Origin: a virus
Taxonomy: Duplodnaviria > Heunggongvirae > Uroviricota > Caudoviricetes
DNA: 39,711 nucleotides
Direction: 5' to 3' (one strand)
IMG/VR virus record: IMGVR_UViG_2531839665_000019
Span: 1 to 39,711 of that record
The notes under the pieces are model-generated. The model ran no database searches, was not told the DNA's origin, and saw nothing but the letters and a program-made list of their open reading frames with translations. A program made the position numbers and the translations under genes. This document shows positions 18,191-39,711 of this stretch, one piece after another (position 1 is the first letter of the stretch; every line of letters starts with the position of its first letter).

Positions 18191-18281
18191 TTCTGACAGC
18201 ATTTACGGGGTGCAGTGCTGTAATGCCTCATCCGTGAGGCGTTTATGTTGTCACAGCCGATTACAGCGCGTTTGTGACCAT

Positions 18282-21578: not shown

Positions 21579-21581
21579 TAA

Positions 21582-23964: not shown

Positions 23965-24010
23965 TACAAATCCCGAATATCAGACGGCCCGGAAAACCGG
24001 GCCGCTGTGG

Positions 24011-24717: not shown

Positions 24718-24737
24718 TGTGTCAGACCTTCAAAAAA

Positions 24738-24920
24738 TCAGTTCTGCGAACACTGCCGGATGCCGTCAATAATCCGGCAGACCTGTGCCGCCGCGTCAAA
24801 CAGCTGGCCCGCTCTGTTAATGTCTGTGCATCCCACCGGAAGCAACATCATCAGAAACAGGGCCAGAACACAGCGCGCGGCTTTACGTGGCGTTCTGTGG
24901 GTCCAGTGACTTCTGTTCAT
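24738..24920 (-). CDS. small membrane/lipoprotein-like protein (possible o-spanin-like)
   Basis: 60 aa; basic N-terminus, hydrophobic stretch, Cys after LLPVG (non-canonical lipobox); immediately after endolysin. Confidence 0.35.
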   Translation of the reverse strand: MNRSHWTHRTPRKAARCVLALFLMMLLPVGCTDINRAGQLFDAAAQVCRIIDGIRQCSQN

Positions 24921-24933
24921 AACCCGTCCCGCA

Positions 24934-25311
24934 TCAACGTTTTAACTGGAAATGAGGCCCGTCTTTCAGCGTTTTCCAGTCTCCGCCCCATTCGATGGCG
25001 ACACCCAGCTCTGCGGCAGCCTGTTTAAAGGCACGGGCGATTTTTTCGTATAACGGCCAGTCCCATGAAATGGTGCTACCAACGTAAGCCACGACATCAA
25101 CGGCATCGCCAGTAAGGTGACGGCTGTTCATGGTCTGGCTCTTGCCTTCAGCGACAAGTTGTTTCTGACGTTCTTTCGTGCGTAAACCTTCGGTAATACC
25201 AAAATCGACGTCTGACAATGCCAGCGCACGACGTACAACCGCCACCAGTTGTGGCTTTACGCCAGCCAGATTTTTCTCGCTACGTTGACTGAAACGGAAT
25301 TTTCCCGACAT
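24934..25311 (-). CDS. endolysin, peptidase M15 family (L-alanyl-D-glutamate peptidase type)
   Basis: SRHLTGDAVD and DWKTLKDGPHFQL motifs; start ATG 25311 overlaps upstream stop (TGAATATG). Confidence 0.8.
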   Translation of the reverse strand: MSGKFRFSQRSEKNLAGVKPQLVAVVRRALALSDVDFGITEGLRTKERQKQLVAEGKSQTMNSRHLTGDAVDVVAYVGSTISWDWPLYEKIARAFKQAAAELGVAIEWGGDWKTLKDGPHFQLKR

Positions 25312-25313
25312 AT

Positions 25314-25592
25314 TCACCTCCGCAATAACGAAAGGATTTTTGACAAATTCCCGTGCGCCCACACGATAAGCGCACAGAAAACCAGATTCAGCGCCACAAC
25401 CAGCCAGCTGGAGTGCGTGTATGTACCGGACAGCCAGCGGAACGGGATGATGATGTAACCGAGCATCAGCCAGTACGCCAGCCAGGTAATCATCGGTTTA
25501 TGCGCTGCGCCGTGGCGGCGATACATAAACAACCCCAGCACAATGGCGAGACACAGCCAGACGTTCACAATACCGGCAAGGCTACTTTCCAT
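25314..25592 (-). CDS. membrane protein, holin/antiholin-like
   Basis: 92 aa with about 3 predicted TM segments; strong SD GGAGGGGG; between holin and endolysin. Confidence 0.5.
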   Translation of the reverse strand: MESSLAGIVNVWLCLAIVLGLFMYRRHGAAHKPMITWLAYWLMLGYIIIPFRWLSGTYTHSSWLVVALNLVFCALIVWAHGNLSKILSLLRR

Positions 25593-25974
25593 TTCCGCCC
25601 CCTCCGCCGCGCAGTCTGGAAAACAGGCTGAACAGCGATGAAATTTCCTGTTGATAAAGAAAAGTCAGTATCTTGATGGATAAAGCAGAGACACCGACCG
25701 CACACAATGCATCGAGCGGCTTGTCGTTGTAGTGGGTCAGCCACTGCATCAGTGACGCAGCCACGCCAGCCCCCAGAACGCCAACCACAAACGCGACGAG
25801 CAGGTGGATAGCCATTCGCCAGACCGGGATTTCTTTCTGCTGCGTGACAACAAAAAGCGCCCCGGCAAACGCGCCCACCACAACCCCGAAATCGGTATTG
25901 GTGAGAAGGCCAAACACACTGGCACCACCGATGGTGACTGCCACAGCTCCGCCGCCTGATAAGGGTTCAGACAT
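25582..25974 (-). CDS. putative holin
   Basis: 130 aa from ATG 25974 (AGGAGA SD, 6 nt spacing); multiple hydrophobic Gly/Ala-rich TM segments; first gene of lysis cassette. Confidence 0.55.
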   Translation of the reverse strand: MSEPLSGGGAVAVTIGGASVFGLLTNTDFGVVVGAFAGALFVVTQQKEIPVWRMAIHLLVAFVVGVLGAGVAASLMQWLTHYNDKPLDALCAVGVSALSIKILTFLYQQEISSLFSLFSRLRGGGGGNGK

Positions 25975-26131
25975 GAGTTTCTCCTGTAAATCTGAGCCAC
26001 TGACGGCCCGTAAATAACACCCTGTCAAAGGCACAAAAGCCTTTTGCAGGGCGCTATCCCTTAAGGTGCCTTGTGGTCTGAGTGGACAGGGTAAACGGTC
26101 TGGTATGGTGGGTACTGCTGGGGGAGTTCAG

Positions 26132-26151
26132 CACCCCGCGGCGGCGGGGTG
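26132..26151. other. GC-rich hairpin (8-bp stem CACCCCGC/GCGGGGTG) at the early/late boundary
   Basis: Perfect inverted repeat in the 120-bp gap upstream of the lysis cassette; no flanking U-tract on either strand. Confidence 0.3.
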
Positions 26152-26156
26152 ATAAA

Positions 26157-26435
26157 TCAGAAGCGGGAAAGAGAATCCGGCGTAATAAGAGGTTTATTAC
26201 AAAGCGGAGCAGAGGCGTTCGCCTTTTCCATCGCTGCGCGCATCTCGTTTTCGCTGGCGATGATGTCAGCAATGGCACACTGCAACGCTTCTTCCTGAAC
26301 AACCATATCCGGTTGTTCGGCCATTCGGTTTAACTGACTGGCCAAATTTTTCATATAAGCAAAGCGACGTCCGGCAGCATCCCGGGCCTGCTCTGAGTAG
26401 GCCGTATACTCGCCAAGTGCCATATAGTTGGTCAT
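26157..26435 (-). CDS. hypothetical phage protein
   Basis: 92 aa from ATG 26435 with AAGGAG SD; follows the Mor-like gene. Confidence 0.5.
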   Translation of the reverse strand: MTNYMALGEYTAYSEQARDAAGRRFAYMKNLASQLNRMAEQPDMVVQEEALQCAIADIIASENEMRAAMEKANASAPLCNKPLITPDSLSRF

Positions 26436-26461
26436 AAGTGTCTCCTTTTTTCTGAGGCCCA

Positions 26462-26929
26462 TTAATCAAAAAGCCCCACCTGGGTGGGGCTTTTCAGCGA
26501 AGTCTGTTTTTGTCGTCGGTGTATCAGCTGCCATGCGTACCGGTCTGAAATGCCGTAACGGGGACAGAGCAGTGCCAGCGCCTGCCGGTGTGAGCATCCG
26601 TCTTTTACATGCTGCTGTAAATCAGCCATAAAACGGGTGTTACGCAGGGCACGTAACGCATGATCGCAACGGGGAATGTAAAACGGAGCACCGCCAAGAA
26701 AGCGGATCAGTTTGTTGATTTCGTCTTCGGTCAGCACGTCATGTAACAGGGCATGGACACCGCCGGTGCGTCCGGCGTGTGCGCCGGTTTTACCGCTTAA
26801 CGTCACGCCACCAAAAGAACGAATCAACCGGGTCAGGGCGGGGAAGCCAATCACGCTAATCAGTTGCTGCACGGAATCGGGCAGCAGTGCCTGCGCATCG
26901 CGAAGATCTGTTTCACTGAAGGTCTGCAT
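26462..26929 (-). CDS. mor: Mor/C-family transcriptional activator
   Basis: 155 aa; C-terminal LGGAPFYIPR...YGISDRYAWQLI matches the Mor/C pattern GG..YIPR......YG.S. Confidence 0.8.
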   Translation of the reverse strand: MQTFSETDLRDAQALLPDSVQQLISVIGFPALTRLIRSFGGVTLSGKTGAHAGRTGGVHALLHDVLTEDEINKLIRFLGGAPFYIPRCDHALRALRNTRFMADLQQHVKDGCSHRQALALLCPRYGISDRYAWQLIHRRQKQTSLKSPTQVGLFD

Positions 26930-27024
26930 GATGGCGTCTCCGGTAGTAACTTACTGTTATTATAGCCATACATGATCGCCTGTACAGACCACAAAAAAGC
27001 CCCTGCAAGGCAGGGGCTGATTCT

Positions 27025-27438
27025 TTATTGTTTACGTGCTGCTCTGGCTCGTTTTCTGGCGTCTTTTGTCAGCGCCACCATCACCCCGAACAGTTGATCA
27101 TCTGTCAGCCATTCGATCACATGTTGCTTATACATGTGAGATGCCAGTCCTTCCGCATATGCCCAGGAACGACCGGCATCAGCCAGCAACGCTTCAATTT
27201 TGGATAATACCGATTTTCTGCTCATTGCCACACGGGGGCGGCGACCTTTACCGGCGGGGGCTTTACGCGGAAATCCCTGTTCGTGCATGTATTCCCGGAT
27301 GATGCGCAGTTCATCGAGGTTGCAGCGTGTGGTGCTGGTTTTACCGGTCAGGCGGGCCAGCGTCTGGCGATAAAGGACATCATCCCACCCCAGATACGCC
27401 TGACCGGCTTTAATGGCTCCGATCATCTTTTTCAGCAT
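27025..27438 (-). CDS. GemA-like regulatory protein (DUF1018, Mu gp16-like)
   Basis: N-terminus IKAGQAYLGWDDVLYRQTLARLTGKTSTTRCNLDELRII resembles the GemA pattern; start taken at internal ATG 27438. Confidence 0.6.
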   Translation of the reverse strand: MLKKMIGAIKAGQAYLGWDDVLYRQTLARLTGKTSTTRCNLDELRIIREYMHEQGFPRKAPAGKGRRPRVAMSRKSVLSKIEALLADAGRSWAYAEGLASHMYKQHVIEWLTDDQLFGVMVALTKDARKRARAARKQ

Positions 27439-27688
27439 GTTTGTTATCCTCAAAACGCACGGTAAAACGTGAAACGCCAATCCCTGACAGGAACGCAGCG
27501 GCACGGTCAAGAGACAGCCACGTCTTGTAATCGCCACGGCGTTCCTGTAGAAAATAGGACACCCCGGCGCGACGATTCACAGCAAAGAGGTGATACACAC
27601 CACCGAACCGCTGCACGACGAACTCATCCACGCCACCGCTTTCAGCCTGTTGCCTGAAAGCTGCCATTCCGATTTGTTCAATCTTCAT
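27410..27688 (-). CDS. hypothetical phage protein
   Basis: ORF downstream of a double palindrome; start ambiguous (27724, 27688 or 27667), none with a good SD. Confidence 0.35.
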   Translation of the reverse strand: MKIEQIGMAAFRQQAESGGVDEFVVQRFGGVYHLFAVNRRAGVSYFLQERRGDYKTWLSLDRAAAFLSGIGVSRFTVRFEDNKHAEKDDRSH

Positions 27689-27693
27689 AATGA

Positions 27694-27738
27694 CCAAAAC
27701 ACTACTTTTGGCAGACCAAAACATATGTTTTGGTCTGC
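27694..27738. promoter_or_regulatory. tandem palindromes sharing CCAAAAC/GTTTTGG half-sites (candidate operator)
   Basis: CCAAAAC-ACTAC-TTTTGG followed by the perfect 28-bp palindrome GCAGACCAAAACATATGTTTTGGTCTGC (27711-27738); centres about 22 bp apart. Confidence 0.45.
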
Positions 27739-27768
27739 GCTTGATTGTTATTTGCTCAATGTGGTGAA

Positions 27769-28020
27769 TTATTTATCACCATCACTGAGCGTCACTTCAT
27801 GGCAGGATGGCGTGCCATCTTTCCCGGCAGAGCAATAAATAAACTTATCTCCGTCGGTCATGGTGGCACTTCCATCATCACAATGCGTAATGGTTTTGAT
27901 GAAATTTCTCCTTACCACGCAATGCCCACTTTCCGCATCATCAGAAGCCTTGTTAGTTGTTACACAAAGCGCAATACCCGTAACAATCAGAGCGATAATA
28001 AAAATGTCAACCCATCTCAT
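27769..28020 (-). CDS. small Cys-rich exported/membrane-anchored protein
   Basis: 83 aa from ATG 28020; N-terminal hydrophobic segment WVDIFIIALIVTGIALC then four Cys in about 60 aa; low-GC region. Confidence 0.5.
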   Translation of the reverse strand: MRWVDIFIIALIVTGIALCVTTNKASDDAESGHCVVRRNFIKTITHCDDGSATMTDGDKFIYCSAGKDGTPSCHEVTLSDGDK

Positions 28021-28024
28021 CTTT

Positions 28025-28210
28025 TCACCCCGCGTAATCAGGTCCGTGTTCCCATCTGGCATCGAGTATTTCCGTTCCATCTGTCCGGCATGGGTTATCA
28101 AGTGCCATTTTTCCGCACTCCCCATACTCGACATCGACAAAATCAGCAATATCATTGTCCGTTGCGTTATCAGGAACGTCGATTTCAACCGTTACGGTGA
28201 TAGTTTTCAT
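28025..28210 (-). CDS. small highly acidic protein (candidate DNA mimic)
   Basis: 61 aa from ATG 28210 (GGAG SD); about 28 percent Asp/Glu. Confidence 0.45.
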   Translation of the reverse strand: MKTITVTVEIDVPDNATDNDIADFVDVEYGECGKMALDNPCRTDGTEILDARWEHGPDYAG

Positions 28211-28251
28211 CAGGTTGTTACTCCGTGATTCAGAAAATTTCATGCCGGGAC

Positions 28252-28665
28252 TCAGTATGTGAAATAGACAGTTGCCACACCGTTATAGTGGTCAAACGAC
28301 ACGGCGTTTACCTCATAACTGGCCGGGAGCTTCGAGCCAAGAACGTATCCGGGCCACGTTTTCCATGGAATTTCTCTGCTCTCACCATCGCCATATACCG
28401 TACATCCCAGTGAGCCTACAGCTTCAGAAGAACGCTTACCGCACGTTATGAACCCCAGATTTTGCTTACTGCCCTTAACAGAAATCGGGAGAGCACTGGC
28501 TGATGCATTAGCAGCACGCTGTGCCTGTTGATTTGCGATATTCGCAGAGTTCGCAGCAGCTGCGGTAGCAGCCGTGGTCGCAGCGGCAGATGCCACAATA
28601 ACTGCTGAGGCCTGCGCCTGTTGGGTAATTGTCAGCAATACCGCCACAAAAATCATTTTCTTCAC
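28252..28665 (-). CDS. secreted protein with signal peptide and Ala-rich linker
   Basis: GTG start at 28665 with AGGAGG SD at 6 nt; signal peptide MKKMIFVAVLLTITQQAQA; two Cys in a beta-rich C-terminal domain. Confidence 0.6.
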   Translation of the reverse strand: MKKMIFVAVLLTITQQAQASAVIVASAAATTAATAAAANSANIANQQAQRAANASASALPISVKGSKQNLGFITCGKRSSEAVGSLGCTVYGDGESREIPWKTWPGYVLGSKLPASYEVNAVSFDHYNGVATVYFTY

Positions 28666-28843
28666 CTGGTACCTCCTTTACATACCGTGATTTTTCCAGC
28701 GGTTTTGGGCTGCGCTTCTGTTTCGCCAGACACCGTAAAAACGAATAGAGGACCACTCTCTAAAACCAAGATATCTATAGCGAACAACAAGCCGATTTGA
28801 GATACGGATAAGCTGCCAGGGTTTTGCTGTCAGCAGTCTTGCT

Positions 28844-29050
28844 TTACGGTTTTTCATCGTTTTGCTCTCCTGTGTGTACTACTGGCTCTGCGCTACCAGC
28901 CCTGCGGCGCTCCTGAAGTTCAGTCAGGGACTGCCGTAAAAGCGTCCACCACTCTCTGTCTACAATCGGCCCGCGCATATCAAGCATTTTGTCAGCATCG
29001 GCAATCAGTCTGGTCAGGCTCTTATCGCTTATTCTGGTTTGCTGGTTCAC
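28844..29050 (-). CDS. hypothetical phage early protein
   Basis: 68 aa ORF in co-directional early operon. Confidence 0.4.
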   Translation of the reverse strand: MNQQTRISDKSLTRLIADADKMLDMRGPIVDREWWTLLRQSLTELQERRRAGSAEPVVHTGEQNDEKP

Positions 29051-29271
29051 TGCGCCGCCTCCTGTTTTGCCACTTTAAACGCCCGTAACATCGGAACCGT
29101 TTTACCGGTGATGACGGTTTTCATTAAAAGGCCACCGCCACTCTGGTGGCGCACTTCAGGAGCCACAAACAGCGCCGCATCCACAACCCGGTTATAGCGG
29201 CGAAACTCCCAGAGCCAGCAGGTAACAATGATTTTTGCTTTAGTCCCATAGTTATAAAATTCAATATTCAT
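29047..29271 (-). CDS. hypothetical phage early protein
   Basis: 74 aa ORF, start/stop overlapping neighbours. Confidence 0.4.
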   Translation of the reverse strand: MNIEFYNYGTKAKIIVTCWLWEFRRYNRVVDAALFVAPEVRHQSGGGLLMKTVITGKTVPMLRAFKVAKQEAAQ

Positions 29272-29495
29272 TTGCAGTTAAACCTCCTTTTATGACGCTC
29301 TACGGCGGCTTTCATGGCGTTGTGCACGGTTCTTTTAATAATCCGGTGTCCTGCACTGTCATAGAACCGCCACCGGGAAGCCCCCGGATATTTAGGGAAC
29401 TCAACCGCCGCGCTACCGTCATTCATCCTGTATTCGTGGCGTTCTCCCGGGGGCTGGTATATTGCTTCGGTAACACTGAGAAGTTTAAAAGCCAT
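29268..29495 (-). CDS. hypothetical phage early protein
   Basis: 75 aa ORF, translationally coupled to neighbours. Confidence 0.4.
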   Translation of the reverse strand: MAFKLLSVTEAIYQPPGERHEYRMNDGSAAVEFPKYPGASRWRFYDSAGHRIIKRTVHNAMKAAVERHKRRFNCK

Positions 29496-29497
29496 CG

Positions 29498-30208
29498 TTA
29501 CACCCTCCCCAGTGCCAGCGTTTTGTTGCTCTGACCATTAACCCCCTGATGCAGTCTGGCGTTTTTCCCGGCGATAAAACCGGCAGTAGCGGCAAACTCT
29601 GCACCCCGGCACGCTTTAGCCGTACGCATATCCCCGTCGCGCAGGCCTTTAGTGCTGTGCAGGTTCTTTCTGTAAAGCTCAAGGCGGCTTTTTTCTTCCG
29701 GGGAGACGTCATACACCGCAATGACATCACGGGCACCAAAGACCCAGCCTTCGCAGAACTGGTCGCCACGGGCTACCCGCGTGGACGGACCGCAACGTTT
29801 GCAGTGTTTATCCTGATATTTTTTACGTTCAGCCATCATCTGACGGGAAAGCACATCAAACGCGTATGCCGCAATTTCCGGGCGGCTGTCAGGACCATAA
29901 AAACGAACGTAACGTTTGAGTGAACCAGAAGCCCGGTATTCGCCGGATATGTAACACTCGACACCGAAGGCTTTACAGACCAGGTCACACAGGATGTGCA
30001 TATAACGCGGCGGTGTACTGGCATCACTCGGCGCACCCGCGCTGGCAGCTTCCTGAATGTCGAACAATTCCGCGTCGTTTTCGCTGATGCCATGCTGGCG
30101 CATATAAGCCTGGGCTTTTGCAATAGCGTTAGCGGCTTCTTCCGGGCTTGATGTTCCTCTGGCAAGGCGTAACAGTTTTTTGATTTTGGCAATGTATTTA
30201 TCTTTCAT
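29498..30208 (-). CDS. DUF2786-like phage protein with Cys cluster
   Basis: 236 aa; N-terminus KIKKLLRLARGTSSPEEAANAIAKAQAYM resembles DUF2786; Cys cluster CKRCG...FCEGW suggests metal binding. Confidence 0.55.
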   Translation of the reverse strand: MKDKYIAKIKKLLRLARGTSSPEEAANAIAKAQAYMRQHGISENDAELFDIQEAASAGAPSDASTPPRYMHILCDLVCKAFGVECYISGEYRASGSLKRYVRFYGPDSRPEIAAYAFDVLSRQMMAERKKYQDKHCKRCGPSTRVARGDQFCEGWVFGARDVIAVYDVSPEEKSRLELYRKNLHSTKGLRDGDMRTAKACRGAEFAATAGFIAGKNARLHQGVNGQSNKTLALGRV

Positions 30209-30221
30209 GGTCGTCTGAACC

Positions 30222-30404
30222 TCAGCATCCTGAATTCTGAATTACGCAACTTCCGGCACGGCCTTCAGGAACGTGGGGAGTTCGTTCTGGCTGCGGTACT
30301 GAATGAACATCTGCTGTCGATTGAGAACTGGTCGCAAGACGATTAAAACAAACGATTGTCAGATTAATTTCGCGGGCGAACTTTTTTTGCTTAGCGATAT
30401 TCAT
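30222..30404 (-). CDS. small hypothetical protein
   Basis: 60 aa ORF; ATG 30404 preceded by a conserved hairpin element and GAGAGAG. Confidence 0.3.
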   Translation of the reverse strand: MNIAKQKKFAREINLTIVCFNRLATSSQSTADVHSVPQPERTPHVPEGRAGSCVIQNSGC

Positions 30405-30420
30405 AAATAAACTCTCTCTG

Positions 30421-30455
30421 ATTCAGGCGTAAGCCAGCCCCGGCGGGTTTACGCC
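30421..30455. repeat. conserved intergenic hairpin element, copy A
   Basis: ATTCAGGCGTAAGCCAGCCCCGGCGGGTTTACGCC; about 14-bp imperfect stem; followed on plus strand by AT-rich AATTAAAAAC. Confidence 0.55.
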
Positions 30456-30484
30456 ATATACAAATAAAATTAAAAACAGACTTA

Positions 30485-31030
30485 TTAACTACGACGTTCA
30501 GTTTTCCGGTAATGGCGGTCAACAGATTTAACGAACGCCTTCACATCACGGGAAATCGAATCCAGCGGATAATATTTATCCAGCAGTTCCATTCCGCTGA
30601 ATCGAATCTGAAAAAAATCAGGCTTATCTTTATATGACTCCATCAGGTCAATAAACCGCAGCTGACGCGGGAGGGATTCCTGCACGCCTGAAATAGTGAG
30701 CAAATCATCTTCAAGGATATATGCGAGGTCTTCCATATCCTTACAGTCAGACATCATGGATATTCTTGTCAGTATGTTCCGTGTGGCGATATACAGCGCG
30801 GCTGTGTCATTCGCCATCATGGCGAACAAATCCCCCTGAATATAAGCCCCCTTACTGGCCATAGCATTCCCGGCAATCTGCGCATCAAGTACCACATACA
30901 TAAAATCGCCAGGTGCACCCAGATGGCCCAGCAATGATGACGCCCATAACGTTACATTGGTTAACTTCCCAGATGAACGGACAGCAAAACCTTCAGGAGT
31001 AACAATAAATTCCCAGACTTTATCTTTCAT
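30485..31030 (-). CDS. hypothetical protein (low-GC cassette)
   Basis: 181 aa from ATG 31030; flanked by hairpin elements; lower GC than phage backbone. Confidence 0.5.
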   Translation of the reverse strand: MKDKVWEFIVTPEGFAVRSSGKLTNVTLWASSLLGHLGAPGDFMYVVLDAQIAGNAMASKGAYIQGDLFAMMANDTAALYIATRNILTRISMMSDCKDMEDLAYILEDDLLTISGVQESLPRQLRFIDLMESYKDKPDFFQIRFSGMELLDKYYPLDSISRDVKAFVKSVDRHYRKTERRS

Positions 31031-31045
31031 ATACAAATCCCCTTA

Positions 31046-31074
31046 ATTCAGGCGCAGACCTGTTTACCTGCGCC
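31046..31074. repeat. conserved intergenic hairpin element, copy B (divergent stem)
   Basis: ATTCAGGCGCAGACCTGTTTACCTGCGCC; same ATTCAGGCG...CGCC flanks as copies A and C; followed by A-run and GTTAAAAATCG. Confidence 0.45.
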
Positions 31075-31094
31075 ATAAAAAAACGAAGTCAGAG

Positions 31095-31487
31095 TTAAAA
31101 ATCGAAGACGTCAGTTAATTCCCGCTTCAGTGAAACGCACTCAGAATAAAAGCCCTCGCTCTCACCGCACCATCTGACGACTACACAGCCTTTTGATGTG
31201 CCGAACTTAAAGAAACTCCATGTCTGATGACCTTCCCCAACATCACATTCTTCGGTAACCACTTCAGCCTCTGTCAGCGGTTCATCTTTCAGGTCGTCAA
31301 GGTCTCCGACGATGTCCTCAATCCAGACTTTTTCGCAGCCTTCCTGAAAGTGGAAAAATGTAAACACGGTTCCCCATACTCCCCGGGAATAATCACCACG
31401 AAAAACAAGTTCATCGTTTTCATTCTTAACTACTTCTTTAAATGTACGCCCGAGCATTTCATTGATAACGGTAACACTCATTTTCAT
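31095..31487 (-). CDS. acidic hypothetical protein (low-GC cassette)
   Basis: 130 aa, Asp/Glu-rich; ATG 31487 preceded by hairpin copy C and GGAGAAATG. Confidence 0.5.
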   Translation of the reverse strand: MKMSVTVINEMLGRTFKEVVKNENDELVFRGDYSRGVWGTVFTFFHFQEGCEKVWIEDIVGDLDDLKDEPLTEAEVVTEECDVGEGHQTWSFFKFGTSKGCVVVRWCGESEGFYSECVSLKRELTDVFDF

Positions 31488-31495
31488 TTCTCCAG

Positions 31496-31530
31496 ATTCA
31501 GGCGTAAGTCAGCCCCGGCTGGTTTACGCC
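31496..31530. repeat. conserved intergenic hairpin element, copy C
   Basis: ATTCAGGCGTAAGTCAGCCCCGGCTGGTTTACGCC; differs from copy A at two stem positions, partly compensatory. Confidence 0.55.
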
Positions 31531-31561
31531 TGTTTTAAATAACAATTAAAAACAAATTAAA

Positions 31562-31753
31562 TTAATGCGGTGCTTTCAGTGTTTCGACTTTTACGAAATA
31601 AGGCTCGACATTAATTTCAACCACACAACCACATTTAAAATCTCTGGCAGGTGAAACGGTTTTCACCACACGACCACCACGCAACGCCGGATGTGCAGTG
31701 TGCATGAAGCGAGTCCCTACCGGATACTGCTTATTAAAGTTCTTCGCATTCAT
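31562..31753 (-). CDS. small hypothetical protein
   Basis: 63 aa ORF in early operon. Confidence 0.4.
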   Translation of the reverse strand: MNAKNFNKQYPVGTRFMHTAHPALRGGRVVKTVSPARDFKCGCVVEINVEPYFVKVETLKAPH

Positions 31754-31967
31754 GGCGTGGCCTCCAGCCCTTCAGGTGAGCGTTAGCGCAGAACTCCGCA
31801 CGATGTTCAGCCCAGATGCGGCGCAGGGTGCTACACGGGCTTTGTGCTGCCTTACGCCACAGCTTTTCAGCCTCGGCATAATCACCGCGCTGTTCAGCTC
31901 TTGACGCTCCCAGTGAATACGCCGCGCAACGGTTCCCGGCTCTGTACTCTTTGATATCCTGATGCAT
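31734..31967 (-). CDS. small helical protein, possibly ANR-family-like regulator
   Basis: 77 aa from ATG 31967 (AGGGG SD, coupled to upstream stop); GDYAEAEKLWRKAAQSP resembles my recollection of the ANR (Aar-like) signature. Confidence 0.4.
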   Translation of the reverse strand: MHQDIKEYRAGNRCAAYSLGASRAEQRGDYAEAEKLWRKAAQSPCSTLRRIWAEHRAEFCANAHLKGWRPRHECEEL

Positions 31968-31968
31968 G

Positions 31969-32613
31969 TTAAACCCCTGCAATATCAAGCGGGATTGCGC
32001 GATATTCGTCAGAATCGCCGACGCGCTCATACACACGAATATAGCTCTTGCTGCCAATCACCTGGACGGCTTCACCAATCAGCGTCATTGCGTTATTCCA
32101 GCGTTCGTCCTCAATTTCAAGGCGACGCAAGGCCAGAACGCGCCCGGTGTTAATGTTGCCTTCCTTGTCCGTGCTGAATGCCTCGCTGATGATGGCTTTG
32201 ATTTCAGGGCGTGCACCTTCCGTCCAGTCAGCCAGGCAATCATCAATCAGCGACTTCGCGGTCTGAATGCGTTCATCAAACGCGATACGGTCCTGCATGG
32301 CGCGCTGAATCTTGTAACGCCCGTCAAAGCTGTAAAGCGTGATATTCCCTTTTTTGCCGCCTTTCACAGCACCGTATTTCTCCGCCGACAGGTCAATAAA
32401 TGCCTGGATATCACCAAACGCACGCAGTTTCAGTTCACGCAGTGAGGCGGAGGCAGCAATCACCATCTCCACAAGCTCACCGACCAGCTGCTCACGGTCG
32501 CGGTCAATATCTTTGATAAGGCTTTCAGGTGTCATTACGCCACGGGCATCCACCCAGTAACCTTCAGGCGCTTGAGTTTTCGTGTATTGCTTAACTTTAT
32601 TTTCAGTCGTCAT
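31969..32613 (-). CDS. hypothetical phage early protein (possibly DUF3164-like)
   Basis: 214 aa ORF; family assignment is weak recall only. Confidence 0.5.
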   Translation of the reverse strand: MTTENKVKQYTKTQAPEGYWVDARGVMTPESLIKDIDRDREQLVGELVEMVIAASASLRELKLRAFGDIQAFIDLSAEKYGAVKGGKKGNITLYSFDGRYKIQRAMQDRIAFDERIQTAKSLIDDCLADWTEGARPEIKAIISEAFSTDKEGNINTGRVLALRRLEIEDERWNNAMTLIGEAVQVIGSKSYIRVYERVGDSDEYRAIPLDIAGV

Positions 32614-32642
32614 AATTAAATTACCTCAGTGATATTTACAGA

Positions 32643-32858
32643 TTAATGTGTGTTATGTGCGCAGGGTTCCACGCCAACAGAAAATAAATCAACGCCGTTA
32701 AATTCTTTATTAAGAGTTTGATTCATTACCTCCCATAACCGTTGTCTTACACCGACCTCTTCATCCGTAAATCCTTTTTTATCAATAGCCCCCATACTCC
32801 TGACACGAAGCGTGCCGTTTTCATCGGTGTAGATAATTACTTCTAACTTGACCGCCAT
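32643..32858 (-). CDS. small hypothetical protein
   Basis: 71 aa ORF downstream of B. Confidence 0.4.
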   Translation of the reverse strand: MAVKLEVIIYTDENGTLRVRSMGAIDKKGFTDEEVGVRQRLWEVMNQTLNKEFNGVDLFSVGVEPCAHNTH

Positions 32859-32870
32859 TCTGATTTCCTC

Positions 32871-33110
32871 TTATTGCCATACGACGGTGCAGCCGTCGAT
32901 ACAGGACGTTTTCACCACGCGGCGCAGGCCGCTGAATGTCTGGACGATTTCCGTTACCGGCCATACAGGACCACCCACGGGCGGGCAGGCATAAACCACA
33001 GGTAAACGGTGATGCTGTCCCGTTACACGACCGCCGGTGGTGTGAATGGCCACACGGGCACGGGAACGGACGGCGTTAATGGTCTGCTTGTCCATCGTCT
33101 TATTCTCCAT
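32871..33110 (-). CDS. small hypothetical protein (kil-position gene)
   Basis: 79 aa ORF immediately downstream of MuB-like gene; no sequence support for function. Confidence 0.35.
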   Translation of the reverse strand: MENKTMDKQTINAVRSRARVAIHTTGGRVTGQHHRLPVVYACPPVGGPVWPVTEIVQTFSGLRRVVKTSCIDGCTVVWQ

Positions 33111-34003
33111 CAGTGAATTAACATTTCTGCGAATTTATCAATGGCCTGCACACTGACCGGCGCATCGCTGATATCACAAATCCGGTACACACCACGCGCC
33201 AGTTTGAACAGGCGGCGGGCATTACCCAGCGAACGTGTATAAAGCGCCTCGCTGATTTCCGGTTCTGCTGCTTCCGGCATCAGCCCGGTGGCTATCTGGT
33301 TAAAATCTTCCTGCGCCAGCGTATCGCCCAGGTTAAGCGCCAGCGCCACACGGCTGTATAACTGGGCGAACTCACCGCGACGTCCCTTGAGGTTAATCAG
33401 AAGGCGTGGCATACCCGCCAGGACAATCCCGATACCCGCTTTGTCATGCAGACGGCGCAGAACCTCCAGTGCGCGATAGGGGAGCAGTTCAGCCTCGTCC
33501 ACCATCAGCAGGCGACCGGAATCACGCAGTTCTCGCACACATGCATCAATCAGTTCGTGGATATTGCCGCGAACTTTTACCCCCAGCTGGCGGCACAGCT
33601 CCTCAAGCAGTGTTCTGGCTGTATAGCCCGGGTCGGCTTCAATCAGGACCGCATCCCGGTTTCTGGCGGCGTATTCACGCAGAATCATTGTTTTGCCAAG
33701 ACCTGCCGCGCCATACAGTACGCAGATTTCACATTCCAGGTGAGCATAGGCCAACACCTCCAGTCCTTTGGCAGCCATACCGGTGGCAACAAATTTCGCT
33801 TTAATACGGCGGCTGTTTTCCTTTTCCCGCTCACGGGTCACAAAGGCAGAAATGCGTTCTTCAATATCAGCCATATCGCCCTGATATTTACCCTGTAAAT
33901 ACTGGTTGATAACGGCGCTGCTACGACCAATAGCACGGGCGACGTGGGTTTGCGTATAGCCGCGACGGGTCATTACGTCATTTAATTGCGTAATTAAACT
34001 CAT
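33110..34003 (-). CDS. B: transposition ATPase MuB-like (AAA+)
   Basis: 297 aa; Walker A GAAGLGKT; N-terminal HTH-like region; immediately downstream of transposase. Confidence 0.85.
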   Translation of the reverse strand: MSLITQLNDVMTRRGYTQTHVARAIGRSSAVINQYLQGKYQGDMADIEERISAFVTREREKENSRRIKAKFVATGMAAKGLEVLAYAHLECEICVLYGAAGLGKTMILREYAARNRDAVLIEADPGYTARTLLEELCRQLGVKVRGNIHELIDACVRELRDSGRLLMVDEAELLPYRALEVLRRLHDKAGIGIVLAGMPRLLINLKGRRGEFAQLYSRVALALNLGDTLAQEDFNQIATGLMPEAAEPEISEALYTRSLGNARRLFKLARGVYRICDISDAPVSVQAIDKFAEMLIH

Positions 34004-34021
34004 AATTAAATACCTTTTAAA

Positions 34022-36064
34022 TTAACGGTTGTTTGTGCCGTTTTTCTTTAAATTGCGTTCGCGTTCAGATGCGAATAAATAAAGTTCTTCTTTTTCCTTT
34101 TTCTCCGGGCGTTCCAGTCCATATCCCAGATTAAAGTCAGGCTTCTGCGTAATGGCCGGGGTAAGCTCGCGTTTAGCCTCTTCGATTTTCTGCGTGGCCC
34201 GTGCAATGCGGCCCCTGACGCGTTTCTCCAGTTTTTGTTCGATAACTGGTTTAGCGAAGGCATCAACCTTGTTACCGTTCCAGATGGCATCGCAGATATA
34301 AGAGCCATCAGCCCGCCGGACAATGACGCTGTTTGCATCATGAATATCGTAACTGACCCTGACTTCATTCCCGTGCTCTGCGGCCAGATCATATGAGTAA
34401 TAAATATTGTTGAATAACTGAATTTCCCCGCGAAATGTTTTGCGCGTCACTTCCGGTCTGAACATTTCATGCAGTTCTTCCGGCGACAGGAAATCAATTT
34501 CAACATTCTGCTCTTTTATCAGTTTCCGGCGATACGCTGCCGGGCTGTAATATTCGCCATCCTCTTTGCGTGGTAGGCTGCTGTGTGGCCGGTTGTTATA
34601 GCGTCTGACCTCCAGCTCTATGGCTGCCATCAGTTGCTCAAAGGTAGGGATTTCATCCCTCGCCTTAACCTGCCGTTTTGTCAGCTCTTTCCCTTTGTGG
34701 GTGGCCTTAATGGCTGACTGCATAATCCGTTGCTGCATCATTACGGTTTCCTTGTCTGCATCCCTTGCGCAGTACGTCTGGAAACTCAGAGCCACGTCTT
34801 TGGGTATTCCTTTGTTTGCCCGTTCAATCACCCCGCGCCCCTGCGGGTTACCTGGTATCCCCGTGTGATGTTCCACACCCAGCCGGGGCAGAATCCCGGT
34901 AATATCGGCATCAAGCACCCGGTTTTTTTCACCGCCCCCGTTATCGGAGTAATAAATCAGCGGTATCCCGTGCTGCGCCATGCCGTAACGTAACGCATCA
35001 GCAACGGCTATCACGTTCTCCGACAGGGACAGTGACCAGCCCACAACAAAGCGTTGCCCAGCATCCATAACAAGCGTCACTTCTGGCCGGAAAATATTGC
35101 CGGTCAGGGGGTTAAACGCGGTCATTTTCATACAGTGACCATCCCCGACCCATACCGCATTAACTGGTAGCGATGTCCAGTCGCGCCGCACAAAGGGATT
35201 GAGCGAACGCCAGGCTGAACCGGTGGAGCGGAAACGCTCTTTAACAATCACCGGGACGCTGCTTAACACCCGTCTTACTGCGTGAACTGAAGGTAATGCT
35301 GCCAGCATTCCCGCATCATTCGCGTGCTTTTCATGCCACCAGGCTGAAAACTCTCGATACGCATATTCAACGGTCGGGCGCTTCCATGAGCGATAGAACA
35401 TAAAGAAATCGCTCAACCACCAGACCTGCTCCCACGGTGTTCCCTTATGATGACCGGGAGCCAGTAACGCCAGTAACTGATTGGCATCACCGCGCGCCAT
35501 CAGCCAGGCGGAATACCATTCCTGTAAACTCCCTGTACTGACGCCAGTTCGCTTACCCTGTCGGGCATTGGCGGTATTACCTGCCACAATAACACGCTCG
35601 GGCAAAGCCTCCTGGCGGATACCATCAACGATGTGTTTTATCGCCGCCGTCCTGGACATTCCTGCGTATTCACGCAGTTTATGCACTTCGGTAGCCAGCA
35701 ATATCCGCGCATCAGCGATGGCCTTTTGCTTGTCGGTCAGTGCCTGGACTTCGCGTAATGCCAGCTCCGGGCATTTGACCATCACCTCCAGTTCATCGCG
35801 GACGGTGACGTTTTTAACTGCCTTCTGCTCAACCACGGCGGGCAGTTGCGCATCTTCCAGAACCTGATGAGTCAGGCGCTTACGTAAAACTTTCTGCGCT
35901 TCAGTGGGCAGGCAGTCGATGTGATACTCGAATGCTTTGGTGCCTTCACGCTTGCGCTTCCATTCCGGGTGCGTCTCTGTGATCCGATTGAGCGTCCAGC
36001 GCACCCCCTGAACTGTACCGGGCAAACCAGGAAGACCGGCCAGCTCATTGGCTGAATAAAACAT
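34022..36064 (-). CDS. A: DDE transposase MuA-like
   Basis: 680 aa; N-terminus with LPGLPGT motif like MuA; catalytic-region motifs VWVGDGH and YYSDNGGGE; start coupled to ner stop. Confidence 0.9.
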   Translation of the reverse strand: MFYSANELAGLPGLPGTVQGVRWTLNRITETHPEWKRKREGTKAFEYHIDCLPTEAQKVLRKRLTHQVLEDAQLPAVVEQKAVKNVTVRDELEVMVKCPELALREVQALTDKQKAIADARILLATEVHKLREYAGMSRTAAIKHIVDGIRQEALPERVIVAGNTANARQGKRTGVSTGSLQEWYSAWLMARGDANQLLALLAPGHHKGTPWEQVWWLSDFFMFYRSWKRPTVEYAYREFSAWWHEKHANDAGMLAALPSVHAVRRVLSSVPVIVKERFRSTGSAWRSLNPFVRRDWTSLPVNAVWVGDGHCMKMTAFNPLTGNIFRPEVTLVMDAGQRFVVGWSLSLSENVIAVADALRYGMAQHGIPLIYYSDNGGGEKNRVLDADITGILPRLGVEHHTGIPGNPQGRGVIERANKGIPKDVALSFQTYCARDADKETVMMQQRIMQSAIKATHKGKELTKRQVKARDEIPTFEQLMAAIELEVRRYNNRPHSSLPRKEDGEYYSPAAYRRKLIKEQNVEIDFLSPEELHEMFRPEVTRKTFRGEIQLFNNIYYSYDLAAEHGNEVRVSYDIHDANSVIVRRADGSYICDAIWNGNKVDAFAKPVIEQKLEKRVRGRIARATQKIEEAKRELTPAITQKPDFNLGYGLERPEKKEKEELYLFASERERNLKKNGTNNR

Positions 36065-36300
36065 TACGCCGCCTTACTGGCATACCGGCTTGGCCAGATC
36101 TCCGCAGGTTCCACACCAATAGCATCGGCTATGATGCGTTCATATTTAGGGCATGAGCGATACAGTGCATTTTTTAAAGAGTCTTTTTTTAGACCAGCGC
36201 GTTCAGAAAGTTCACGCAATGTAAAACCTTTGGTGTGCACAGCGGCAACGATGTACTCGCGGTGCCAGTCTTTGTTCATTACTTCATTTCTAACCATCAT
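36064..36300 (-). CDS. ner: Ner-like DNA-binding regulator
   Basis: 78 aa from ATG 36300 (AAGGG SD); DWHREYIV...KNALYRSCPKYERIIADAIGVEPAEIWPSRY matches the Ner/Nlp pattern. Confidence 0.85.
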   Translation of the reverse strand: MMVRNEVMNKDWHREYIVAAVHTKGFTLRELSERAGLKKDSLKNALYRSCPKYERIIADAIGVEPAEIWPSRYASKAA

Positions 36301-36316
36301 TAGGTTACCCTTAAAA

Positions 36317-36359
36317 GTTATCCGTACGGATAACACCGCCGTGTTATCCCTTCGGATAC
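36317..36359. promoter_or_regulatory. two operator-like palindromes (GTTATCC-N4-GGATAAC) in the ner/repressor divergent control region
   Basis: Perfect palindrome GTTATCCGTACGGATAAC (36317-36334) and near-copy GTTATCCCTTCGGATAC (36343-36359), just upstream of ner. Confidence 0.5.
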
Positions 36360-36468
36360 AAGTATTGATCCATAAATAGAAAATTACAAGCTTTCTTTTC
36401 TTGATTTAGAGAAAAGAAAGTCTCTTTGTGGAGATTGGTTGAAAATCAATATGTTAGAAGGAAAGAAA

Positions 36469-37119
36469 ATGAGTAAACAAACCGCTGATGATTTTTCCTT
36501 TTCTCAGGATAGAAAAGAAAGCATTCAAGACAGAATCAAACAACTGATTGGCAGCAGGAGCCTGCGTAAAGCCACCTCAGACTGGGGATTACCGTACTCG
36601 ACCATAAATAACTACTTTGAAAAAGGCACCACACCTGGCCTAAATGTGGTCGCTACAATAGCAAAATTAGAGAATGTATCACTGGAATGGCTGGTCTATG
36701 GTGAGAACAAAAACATTCTAATGATAGAAAACACAAAGGTGGCTACAGAAGACGTTAACCGCCCCGATACAAGTATTGTTGACGAAATACTAAGACGAGC
36801 CGCTCCAGAAGATAGAGAGCGTCTTATTGATATGCTTTGTTGTATTGGTATCAAAGGAGTCCTGGAACGCTTACAACAACCCATCAGGCAAGCTACGCAG
36901 GCCGACAGCGACCAAGACGAACAGGAGAATGCCATCAGAAGCCTAAACATCAGGGAATCACTCAAAGACGTTATATGTATGGCTCTAGATGGTAATGAAG
37001 AAACCGACAAAGAGATTTTGCGACGCATCGAATCTCGTGCACGGGCTGGGTCGCCAGGTGGTCAGACCGCTGCCACGCCGGAACAAGAAACGAAGCCTGT
37101 AAGCAAAAAATCAGCATGA
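36469..37119 (+). CDS. phage repressor (CI-like HTH)
   Basis: Start taken at ATG 36469 (AGGA SD); HTH-like segment STINNYFEKGTTPGLNVVATIAKLENVSLEWLVYGE; divergent from ner/A/B as for the Mu c repressor. Confidence 0.7.
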   Translation: MSKQTADDFSFSQDRKESIQDRIKQLIGSRSLRKATSDWGLPYSTINNYFEKGTTPGLNVVATIAKLENVSLEWLVYGENKNILMIENTKVATEDVNRPDTSIVDEILRRAAPEDRERLIDMLCCIGIKGVLERLQQPIRQATQADSDQDEQENAIRSLNIRESLKDVICMALDGNEETDKEILRRIESRARAGSPGGQTAATPEQETKPVSKKSA

Positions 37120-37280
37120 ACGCCTACTGCCTGGTGGGCGCATGCTGCTAACTAATTAGCGACATCCACAACAAAACCAATACAGAAGACGGATAAGAAA
37201 GGGACAAATTAAGCAAGGTTAAAACGGGTTTTAAAATCTTTTAAAAGGCGATCGCTTTCCTGCACCACCAGATCAAAGTA

Positions 37281-37414
37281 GTCCAGAATAAAGCGTAAAA
37301 AAAGGCACTTTTGGTCATTTCTTTCAAAACGATCCAGAATCGGTGAAATCTCTCACATCCCGCACCACTCAAGGCTTGCAGGTTCGTCCAGGCTGCTCGG
37401 ACCCAGTCCAGAAT
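37281..37414. repeat. three copies of (G/A)TCCAGAAT near the prophage left end (candidate transposase-binding sites)
   Basis: GTCCAGAAT at 37281-37289, ATCCAGAAT at 37332-37340, GTCCAGAAT at 37406-37414, all in the same orientation within 135 bp. Confidence 0.4.
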
Positions 37415-37430
37415 TGATCACCACCCCACA

Positions 37431-37667
37431 AATACAGCGGTAGGTCTGGGGCTATACCCGGATTACGCAACGGCTGTTGATAAGATGGTTCGCGTGAAAG
37501 ATATCTTTATACCGATTGAGAGCAATGCCAAACGCTACGACGCGATGAATAAAGGCATTTTCAAAGACCTAACCAAACATACTGATGTGATCCTGAAAAA
37601 ATCGTATGAAGTGATGCATGGGGAATTGGGGAATGTGGATTCGATCCAGAGCTGGTCGAATGCGTAA
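37431..37667 (+). pseudogene. 3' fragment of host FGGY-family sugar kinase gene (ygcE-like), truncated by the prophage
   Basis: Open frame encodes ...NTAVGLGLYPDYATAVDKMVRVKDIFIP...SWSNA*, resembling FGGY kinase C-termini; upstream residues in the same frame are non-kinase-like; 5' boundary approximate. Confidence 0.45.
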
Positions 37668-37675: not shown

Positions 37676-37699
37676 GGCCGGGCGGGAAACTGCCCGGCC
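37676..37699 (+). other. GC-rich stem-loop downstream of the kinase stop
   Basis: GGCCGGGC-GGGAAACT-GCCCGGCC; 8-bp GC stem; no U-tract follows, so terminator function uncertain. Confidence 0.3.
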
Positions 37700-37713
37700 T
37701 GAACATACCTGAA

Positions 37714-37851
37714 TGGTTATCCCCGCTGACGCGGGGAACATAAGTTCGACAACTTAAAAAATGATAACAAGTCCGGTTTATCCCCGCTGATGCAGGGAAC
37801 ATAATAAAAACTTTAACTAGTTCGGTTTATCCCTGTTTTTACAAGGAATAT
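37714..37851 (-). CRISPR. degenerate type I-E CRISPR remnant (3 decayed repeats; spacers 32 and 20 bp)
   Basis: Repeats at 37714-37741, 37774-37802 and 37823-37851 with 2 to about 10 mismatches versus CGGTTTATCCCCGCTGGCGCGGGGAACTC. Confidence 0.6.
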
Positions 37852-38305
37852 TAACTACACTCGATGTCTTTAGAATAAAAGACAATACGAATCGCACTTT
37901 ATCAATTTTCACTTAAAGTATGAACTGGATATCTTTATTCATAAGAACTATTCATCAACAGCGTATAGAGGCGGTTATGTAAAACCACTCATTAGCCTCA
38001 AAACAAAGACAAACTTCCAGATTTATTACTTAACCAATGAATAACAAGCTTAAAAAACATACTGTTATTCTAAAGAAAAAATTAACAGGCATTAATTCAA
38101 TATTAAAAAAATAATAGATTAAAATTTCTTAACGATTTAAGAATCATACAAATAACACTTTGATTAAATTTAATTTTTTGTATCGATAATTGTGAACCTC
38201 TCTGGCATGGAGAACTATTTTGAACATGAGGTGTTACGTGGATATGTTGCTTATTACAAGTACTGCTAATATAAAAACTTGAGAAAGAGATAACGGGTTA
38301 TATGG

Positions 38306-38700
38306 TGGTTTATCCCCGCTGGCGCGGGGAACTCTAATCACGTTTTAGCGCGCCCTCGTCCGGTTTCGGTTTATCCCCGCTGGCGCGGGGAACTCAAGAC
38401 GACGTGATCCGCAAAGTCGAAGGCACGCGGTTTATCCCCGCTGGCGCGGGGAACTCTGTTTTTCTGCCGGTTTAACACGGTGCGATAACGGTTTATCCCC
38501 GCTGGCGCGGGGAACTCTGTTTCTGTCCCAACTGAACAGCGCCGATAGTCGGTTTATCCCCGCTGGCGCGGGGAACTCGAATGATCCCAAATTTGGGTTA
38601 CAGAACCAGTCGGTTTATCCCCGCTGGCGCGGGGAACTCGGACTTAAAGATCGCATCACAGTACTGGAGGGCGGTTTATCCCCGCTGGCGCGGGGAACTC
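38306..38700 (-). CRISPR. type I-E CRISPR array, 7 repeats / 6 spacers (E. coli ygcE-ygcF CRISPR2-type locus)
   Basis: 29-bp repeat CGGTTTATCCCCGCTGGCGCGGGGAACTC at 38306, 38367, 38428, 38489, 38550, 38611, 38672; all spacers exactly 32 bp; leader-distal repeat (38306) has a terminal base change. Confidence 0.95.
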
Positions 38701-38900
38701 TGTAAACATAACCTATTATTAATTAATGATTTTTTAAGCCAGTCACAATCTACCAACTTTATAGTATCACACAAACAACACATCCATTATGTTAAAGAGC
38801 ACTTAATCCATTGATTAAAAAGGTAAATATTTAAAATAACTCTATACAAACTAAAATCTACCAAACTTTACCGCAATAATTTTCACTCCAGCGAAAAATT
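38701..38900 (-). promoter_or_regulatory. CRISPR leader (AT-rich), adjacent to the leader-proximal repeat
   Basis: Minus strand begins CTGGCTTAAAAAATCATTAATTAATAATAGGTTATGTTTACA next to the repeat at 38672-38700, matching my recollection of the E. coli I-E leader end; extent approximate. Confidence 0.5.
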
Positions 38901-39039: not shown

Positions 39040-39711
39040 TCAGGCAATATTTAGATATTTATGTGTTTGCATCGACAAACGCCAATTACGCGCAATGCAG
39101 GTTTCAATGCACAAACGTGTGGCATCATCCTTTTGGCTAATCGGCTGCAGTGCAATGACTCGCGGTTTATCATCGGTCAGCGTTGCCAGTAGTTCATCCA
39201 GTGCTTCAATATCACGTACGCGCCCCACTGGATGCTTGATTTCGTTGGCTCGCTCCAGTGCCTGTGACAACACGTCATAGCCGCCGCGCATGTTCAGCTT
39301 TGGCGATACGGTAACCCAGGTATTCGGTGTGCAGCGTACTTCATGAGTTCCACTGGTTTCGATCTGGCAGCTAAAACCGTTCTTTTCGAGCAGGTCAGTC
39401 AGTGGCAGCAAATCATGAATGCAAGGCTCACCACCCGTAATCACCACATGCCGCGCGGTATATCCCTGCCGACCAATGACAGCCAGCAAATCTTCACTGC
39501 TCGCCGCCCCCCACTTATCACTCTCTTTGGTCTTCGCCAGAATGCTGAAAAGGGAGACTTCCCGATCCTCAAGCTTTTCCCAGGTGTGTTTGGTGTCGCA
39601 CCAGGCACAGCCAACCGGGCATCCCTGTAAACGAATAAAAATGGCGGGGACGCCGGTAAAGTAACCCTCACCTTGCAGGGTCTGGAACATCTCGTTAATC
39701 GGGTACTGCAT
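39040..39711 (-). CDS. queE: 7-carboxy-7-deazaguanine synthase (radical SAM)
   Basis: 223 aa; N-terminus MQYPINEMFQTLQGEGYFTGVPAIFIRLQGCPVGCAWCDTKHTW with Cx3Cx2C-type cluster motif; recognised as E. coli QueE/YgcF. Confidence 0.95.
   Translation of the reverse strand: MQYPINEMFQTLQGEGYFTGVPAIFIRLQGCPVGCAWCDTKHTWEKLEDREVSLFSILAKTKESDKWGAASSEDLLAVIGRQGYTARHVVITGGEPCIHDLLPLTDLLEKNGFSCQIETSGTHEVRCTPNTWVTVSPKLNMRGGYDVLSQALERANEIKHPVGRVRDIEALDELLATLTDDKPRVIALQPISQKDDATRLCIETCIARNWRLSMQTHKYLNIA

Follow-up and report, generated by a model that had tools for sequence, protein, structure and literature searches.

The stretch of DNA analysed here, referred to as the window, is 39,711 nucleotides long, and homology to the E. 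coli chromosome opens exactly at its position 37431 when it is compared by megablast with complete E. coli genomes. A megablast search with 37100-39711 matched 5424 of 5426 complete E. coli genomes, and the features annotated beneath the matches are ygcE, CRISPR and queE. The homologous part begins with the 3' fragment of ygcE (37431..37667, plus strand), which maps onto K-12 ygcE as nt 1243-1479 of 1479 and has its stop codon at 37665-37667. It ends with queE, also called ygcF (39040..39711, minus strand), an ORF of 223 aa that is annotated as queE beneath the match in all listed E. coli genomes. Directly past the ygcE stop codon, a GC-rich hairpin of the form GGCCGGGC-N8-GCCCGGCC (37676..37699) can be read from the sequence; the terminator scan missed it because it has no T run. 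This hairpin could act as a putative barrier that keeps read-through from ygcE or from the prophage out of the arrays.

Between the two genes lie a main CRISPR array, CRISPR2.3 (38306..38700, minus strand), and a remnant array, CRISPR2.2 (37713..37851, minus strand). The stretch that separates them (37852..38305) is AT-rich, with 28% GC, and shows no significant similarity to the CRISPR2.3 leader. An Rfam search at gathering and E-value thresholds returned no meaningful family.

In CRISPR2.3, seven 29-nt repeats recur exactly every 61 nt and enclose six 32-nt spacers; the repeats are of the 'type 2' form, G(A/T)GTTCCCCGCGCCAGCGGGGATAAACCG, in its CRISPR-A variant. On the plus strand the repeat reads CGGTTTATCCCCGCTGGCGCGGGGAACTC and occurs at 38306, 38367, 38428, 38489, 38550, 38611 and 38672. 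Six of the seven copies are perfect, and the copy at 38306, at the end opposite the leader, has T in place of C at its first position. An earlier note on this DNA, made from the sequence alone, had described an intact six-spacer type I-E array with a degenerate leader-distal repeat, and this is what the array shows. Folded as RNA, the repeat forms a 7-bp hairpin at -15.1 kcal/mol (z = -3.6).

What stands on the plus strand is the reverse complement of GAGTTCCCCGCGCCAGCGGGGATAAACCG, the canonical repeat of the E. coli type I-E system. The minus strand is therefore the one on which the array is read, which puts the leader on the queE side, from 38701 to about 38900. The spacers, all on the minus strand and 32 nt each, are S1 (38335-38366), S2 (38396-38427), S3 (38457-38488), S4 (38518-38549), S5 (38579-38610) and S6 (38640-38671), of which S6 is leader-proximal. 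The spacer sequences quoted in the earlier note are antisense to the crRNA.

Leader 2.3 (38701..38900, minus strand) adjoins the last repeat and is AT-rich, with 27% GC. The 340 nt after the last repeat are identical to those of K-12 at 339 positions, as expected of the conserved leader. The leader is the site of the array promoter according to the literature (PMC3903273, PMC3737337). The placement of the promoter here rests on that literature because a promoter consensus scan found no consensus sigma-70 site on the leader's minus strand; the scan returned fewer promoter-like sites than it did in shuffled sequence. Past the leader, the intergenic stretch runs on to 39039.

CRISPR2.2 consists of three repeats, at 37713-37741 (6 mismatches), 37774-37802 (5 mismatches) and 37823-37851 (strongly decayed), all of which still form the 7-bp hairpin on folding. 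The decayed sister array proposed earlier is thus real, while the "two remnant spacers" ascribed to it turn out to be one 32-nt spacer (37742-37773) and one 20-nt stretch (37803-37822). K-12, UTAK-6, JB2 and 2015C-3163 all carry identical copies of the first two repeats and of the 32-nt spacer, and in all four the second remnant repeat is likewise separated by 503 nt from the main array. CRISPR2.2 is a species-wide fossil array.

The type I-E system of E. coli is split between CRISPR-I, which lies between iap and cysH together with the cas genes, and CRISPR-II, which lies between ygcE and ygcF (PMC3903273, Almendros et al. 2014). CRISPR-II is composed of CRISPR2.2 and CRISPR2.3, 0.5 kb apart, and the leader adjacent to CRISPR2.3 is similar in all strains (PMC3903273). 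The window has the same flanking genes, and it has two arrays about 0.5 kb apart of which the first is a short remnant. We put the probability at roughly 90% that 37431-39711 is the canonical E. coli CRISPR-II locus, type I-E, with a Mu-like neighbour inserted in ygcE. Both the kind of locus and its layout are already known, this being the textbook second CRISPR locus of nearly all E. coli, located between ygcE and queE.

In K-12 MG1655, CRISPR-II shares with the window the flanking genes, the CRISPR2.2 repeats and 32-nt spacer, the gap between the arrays, the near-identical leader and the count of seven repeats and six spacers. It differs in that all six spacers are different and that ygcE is intact and free of a prophage. 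The repeats differ as well: those of K-12 are of the CRISPR-T variant (GTGTTCCCC..., GTG...), whereas those of the window are CRISPR-A (GAGTTCCCC..., GAG...). CRISPR-A repeats go together with non-K-12 cas-EO genes (PMC3737337), and the window agrees with this non-K-12 I-E variant (CRISPR-A, cas-EO of O157:H7; PMC3737337) in having A at position 2 of the repeat. The spacers would have been acquired by the machinery of this non-K-12 "CRISPR-A / cas-EO" variant.

The remainder of the window (1..37430, minus strand) is a Mu-like transposable prophage of about 37.5 kb, recognised by its matches to PHROGs. At its right end it extends 82 bp past the start of the window; its left end, which carries the repressor, is at 37430 beside the ygcE fragment and 283 bp from the first remnant repeat, so that the earlier note was correct in placing a prophage right beside the arrays. 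At the left end are a repressor (36439-37119, plus strand; phrog_3037), a Ner-like gene (36064-36336; phrog_769), a MuA-like transposase of the DDE type (34022-36064; phrog_310, E = 4.6e-196) and a MuB-like ATPase (33110-34003; phrog_296, E = 1.6e-103). PHROGs also match Kil and Mor genes, a DNA methyltransferase, and holins and an endolysin for lysis. The head and tail are represented by a terminase, a protease, a DUF935 portal, the Mu-F-like and gpT head proteins, Mu-type tail genes and tail-fibre genes. The prophage shares with phage Mu the transposase and ATPase placed next to a repressor and Ner at one end, as well as Mor and the Mu-type head genes. No gin/mom region like that of Mu was seen, and the element ends 82 bp after a tail-fibre assembly-like gene.

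The insertion point is at ygcE nt 1243 of 1479, in codon 415, and severs the 3' fragment from its own 5' part, which is found on the far side of the prophage in a matching contig. The termini are 5'-TGTAAC... and ...CCCCACA-3', which resemble Mu in their 5'-TG...CA-3' ends and in the short target duplication that flanks them. The duplication differs from the 5 bp of Mu, being a perfect 4 bp (AATA here and CGAC in STEC316); a length of 5 bp is obtained only under a different end assignment. Relatives of the prophage at 95-97% identity are present in 49 complete E. coli genomes, and an identical tail-fibre assembly-like protein occurs in at least 10 unrelated chromosomal contexts, which gives the element the many insertion sites also known for Mu. 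Insertion at essentially random sites by transposition fits both the 49 genomes and these contexts. The phage would then have inserted in ygcE essentially at random, downstream of the array, and left the leader untouched. No megablast similarity to the prophage was found in the isolated-phage collection, and the transposases of isolated phages share no more than 49% identity with its own.

The earlier note had asked whether any of the spacers match this prophage, which would imply silencing or anti-CRISPR activity. A Hamming scan of every spacer, including the remnant spacers, against both strands of the window gave no match to the prophage. At the best non-self sites, the 32-nt spacers mismatched at 11-13 of 32 positions and the short remnant stretch at 6 of 20. 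Two hundred shuffles of each 32-nt spacer gave the same distribution as the real spacers, with means of 12.3-12.8 mismatches. A PAM together with a perfect seed was found in the prophage for S5 only, at two sites, which is within chance expectation; over their whole length, these two sites show 11/32 and 13/32 identity. No near-complete, PAM-flanked match to a spacer was found in the resident prophage, more than 99% of which lies in the window (the portion outside is 82 bp), nor did the spacers match a 97%-identical relative of the prophage.

Self-targeting by the CRISPR-II spacers is therefore excluded, and with no spacer match nothing implies self-targeting, silencing or anti-CRISPR activity. 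The corresponding scenario, in which a spacer hits the adjacent prophage and the cell survives by means of an anti-CRISPR protein or silenced cas genes, draws on the circumstance that the prophage adjoins the array and on the many small early prophage genes without a known function. A further circumstance is that Mu-like phages of Pseudomonas are known carriers of anti-CRISPR genes. Twenty prophage genes, mostly small early and lysis genes, were compared with PHROGs and none was annotated as an anti-CRISPR, and the gap between the virion-morphogenesis and protease genes (18127-18281) holds no inserted gene. With the spacer alignments at the level of shuffled controls, the two PAM-plus-seed sites so poorly matched overall and the close relative likewise without a match, this scenario is scarcely credible. 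The prophage belongs to a Mu-like lineage that is common in E. coli genomes and absent from isolated-phage collections, evidently mobile, and untargeted by this array.

The spacers themselves are shared with other strains. Each of the six has a 100% identical copy in the CRISPR arrays of other E. coli, and one or more of them, at no less than 99% identity, are present in 267 E. coli genomes. Read from the leader-distal to the leader-proximal end, CRISPR2.3 of the window is S1-S2-S3-S4-S5-S6, that of 2015C-3163 (NZ_CP027219.1) is X0-S1-X1-S2-S3-S4-S5-S6, that of UTAK-6 is S3-S4-S5-S6 and that of JB2 is S1-X1-S5-S6. The array of 2015C-3163 has identical repeats and carries S1-S6 in the same order with S6 at the leader; it differs in an extra X0 at the leader-distal end, an extra X1 between S1 and S2, and a ygcE without the prophage. 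As judged from this comparison, the window array is a two-deletion derivative of the 8-spacer array, with X0 and X1 missing. It is clonally inherited, showing only losses against the complete-genome relatives compared, with S5-S6 fixed at the leader end. The six spacers are an inherited clonal set, derived by deletion from the 8-spacer array of other strains, a pattern in keeping with published work, in which E. coli I-E arrays are described as largely frozen and passed on clonally.

Counterparts outside CRISPR arrays were found for two spacers. S4 has its counterpart in lambdoid prophages of E. coli A30 (29/32) and D217-5 (28/32), in a gene just upstream of the small terminase subunit gene. 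The mismatches between S4 and these counterparts are confined to third codon positions, and the match is directly preceded by ATG. S5 was the only spacer to match among 50,697 phage records searched by BLAST, and it matched, at 28/32 and with an ATG PAM, an O-like replication gene of Edwardsiella phage GF-2. The match falls within the iteron-like NDPKIGIL repeat region of the GF-2 gene, and S5 itself encodes NDPKFGLQNQ. Both sets of counterparts are diverged, with 3-4 mismatches, and their BLAST E-values of 0.2-0.3 are weak when taken alone.

Of the I-E PAMs (AAG or ATG, 5' of the crRNA-sense protospacer), the diverged counterparts of S4 and S5 both have ATG. For CRISPR-A arrays, the PAM reported to dominate is ATG, given as CAT in that paper (PMC3737337, Diez-Villasenor et al. 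2013), so that the window resembles the non-K-12 I-E variant (PMC3737337) in its PAM too, as seen here from two diverged counterparts only. Two old E. coli spacers are in this way traced to a lambdoid late gene (S4) and an O-type replication gene (S5), and at least two of the spacers would have come from phages unrelated to the neighbouring prophage.

For S1, S2, S3 and S6, no counterpart was found in the phage, plasmid, IMG/VR, GTDB-genome and metagenome collections searched. The phage and plasmid searches used BLAST with a word size of 11 and E up to 10, and the matches among the 72,556 plasmid records were chromosomes mislabelled as plasmids and one spacer of a CRISPR array. The latter, on plasmid pIOMTU792, was rejected as a protospacer, since the similar sequence is itself a spacer of a CRISPR2.1 array. 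IMG/VR, scanned for exact matches to each of the six spacers with N at every sixth position, gave 0 hits, as did searches of GTDB species genomes with S6 and S2. In metagenome contigs, S6 gave 5 hits, all of them CRISPR arrays. Some metagenomic arrays carry further spacers on the leader side of S6.

No cas genes were found within the window, either in the ORF list or among the PHROGs matches, in agreement with the earlier note. This absence reflects the split layout that is normal for the I-E system in E. coli. The cas genes fall outside because the 37.5-kb prophage in ygcE displaces the iap-cysH locus past the edge of the window: all of the sequence up to 37430 is prophage, and the cas locus would fall about 16 kb beyond the window start. 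In UTAK-6, the order of genes is iap, CRISPR2.1, cas2 through cas3, hok, cysHIJ, queD, ygcN through yqcE, ygcE, CRISPR-II and queE, with a full cas set in which cas3 is annotated as frameshifted. In 2015C-3163, the cas-E operon is intact and cas3 starts 14.9 kb beyond the ygcE start. Both of the spacer-sharing relatives inspected (n=2) have cas3 through cas2 and CRISPR2.1 at 15-25 kb beyond ygcE.

A contig from a public assembly, AATKJF020000002.1 (GCA_012861115.2), is identical to window 1-10579 at 10579/10579 positions and continues past the window start. There it carries the last 82 bp of the prophage, followed by the 5' part of ygcE and by yqcE, ygcW, ygcU, ygcS, ygcR, ygcQ, ygcP, ygcO and ygcN, which is the normal order, heading toward cysH and cas. 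Judging from the relatives, the cas-E operon is probably present at iap-cysH in this genome. Cascade and Cas3, made from genes of CRISPR-I (iap-cysH), a separate locus some 15 kb past ygcE, would then use the crRNAs of CRISPR-II.

It is unlikely, if still worth weighing, that the strain has lost its cas-E operon and that CRISPR2.2 and CRISPR2.3 are true orphan arrays, inert fossils that merely persist. Loss of the cas-E operon is seen in BL21 and many B2 strains. The window is without a cas gene, and the array shows only losses of spacers against its relatives and no gains. Some E. coli strains are also on record as keeping CRISPR2.3 and its leader without cas genes (PMC3737337, PMC3903273). 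On the other side, spacer-sharing 2015C-3163 has an intact operon and UTAK-6 the full set, with the cas3 frameshift as annotated; the synteny toward cysH is normal up to ygcN on the matching contig; and the repeats are perfectly conserved. We favour the split system with its cas genes at CRISPR-I, and the case illustrates that, where a large prophage has inserted and the window then ends, a normal split CRISPR-Cas system may be taken for an orphan array.

Based on the literature and on the anatomy of the locus, the array would be transcribed on the minus strand from the queE-side leader, and the pre-crRNA would be cut by Cas6e at the repeat hairpins. Transcription from the leader and processing by Cas6e are both suggested by the identity of the leader and the intact repeat hairpins. 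Seen from the leader, the prophage is on the far, downstream side of the array, its end 876 bp away from the last repeat of CRISPR2.3. No effect of the prophage on transcription initiation is expected, because it is downstream and the leader is so nearly identical to that of K-12.

A different kind of effect would be read-through on the plus strand from the repressor gene, giving antisense RNA across CRISPR2.2 and CRISPR2.3 and less crRNA. The repressor gene (36439-37119, plus strand) does point out of the prophage end toward the arrays, and the terminator scan called no terminator-like site on the plus strand from 37119 to the arrays. This topology is unchanged from other strains, in that ygcE converges on the arrays in the same direction in every E. 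coli. The GC-rich hairpin after the ygcE stop codon also lies on this path as a putative barrier, and the leader is intact and the prophage end is well removed from the main array, so altered array expression by this route is very improbable.

The description of the arrays in the earlier note was right and its interpretation is partly supported; what it had named as counting against its proposal, no spacer match to the prophage and an unremarkable, transcriptionally unaffected array, is essentially what was found. For the prophage to be more than a bystander, its repressor transcript would have to damp CRISPR-II crRNA by antisense, or an unannotated early gene would have to inhibit the E. coli I-E system; in a weaker variant, a CRISPR2.1 spacer of this same genome, outside the window, would target the prophage. 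The chance of this is slight in the extreme. If it were true, antisense damping or an I-E inhibitor would allow a transposable phage to live 283 bp away from a CRISPR locus.

The gene ygcE is disrupted by a Mu-like transposable prophage, complete and about 37.5 kb long, which occupies positions 1-37430 of the window and continues for 82 bp past the window start, as seen in the source contig (L018, AATKJF020000002.1). It looks like a member of an apparently active, uncharacterised E. coli Mu-like lineage. Copies at 95-97% identity are held by 49 complete E. coli genomes, and an identical form of the prophage's tail-fibre assembly-like protein occurs in 10 or more distinct chromosomal contexts. 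Among the isolated phages of the collection there was no match to the prophage at the DNA level, and its transposase shares no more than 49% identity with the transposases of isolated phages.

If TG...CA termini are assumed, the target is perfectly duplicated over 4 bp, AATA, at window 37426-37435 and in the flank of the other end in L018. With the same termini, the STEC316 loci L005 and L026, the former holding a 97%-identical relative, also show a perfect duplication of 4 bp, CGAC, whereas the duplication typical of Mu is 5 bp. A 5-bp duplication is obtained only by setting the left end one base earlier, and it then contains one mismatch in this genome.

The prophage carries two consecutive pairs of tail-fibre and assembly-protein genes (593-4134), both on the same strand. 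In the first pair the fibre gene lies at 3100-4134 and the assembly gene at 2525-3100; in the second they lie at 593-2479 and 1-579. No invertase was seen, and the STEC316 and UMNF18 relatives carry the first fibre gene as a pseudogene. A DNA methyltransferase gene (23224-23964; phrog_67, E = 2.6e-54) adjoins the large terminase gene, and its product may have an anti-restriction role.

In the main CRISPR array (CRISPR2.3, 38306-38700), spacer S3 (38457-38488) has a counterpart elsewhere: a different spacer, identical to it at 27 of 29 positions (L004 1501-1529), which is offset by 3 nt and runs the opposite way with respect to its own repeats. The two arrays have thus sampled both strands of one and the same invader region. 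About 130 other E. coli genomes carry this offset, S3-like spacer in their CRISPR arrays. The one case inspected is a CRISPR2.1 array with iap, cas1 and cas2 on the IncHI2 plasmid pIOMTU792 (NZ_LC542972.1), recorded as a 293-kb IncHI2A conjugative plasmid. There the chromosomal segment iap, CRISPR2.1, cas2e and cas1e lies at 245-248 kb; either an I-E locus has been mobilised here or the record contains an artefact of assembly.

S3 also resembles its neighbour S4 (38518-38549). Ungapped, the two are identical at 16 of 32 positions (window 38457-38549), and in the RNA sense both begin with TATCG and finish with A(A/G)AAACA, which is why Tandem Repeats Finder reports 85% matches for this part of the array. 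Both spacers may have been taken from homologous sites in related elements, or the likeness may be chance.

The most decayed repeat of the remnant array CRISPR2.2 (37823-37851) matches the consensus at 18 of 29 positions, yet still forms the same 7-bp hairpin: two C-G pairs have become U-A by double (compensatory) changes, and one pair is G-U. C-to-T transitions could have produced this by chance, or it could be a vestige of selection that once acted on the hairpin.
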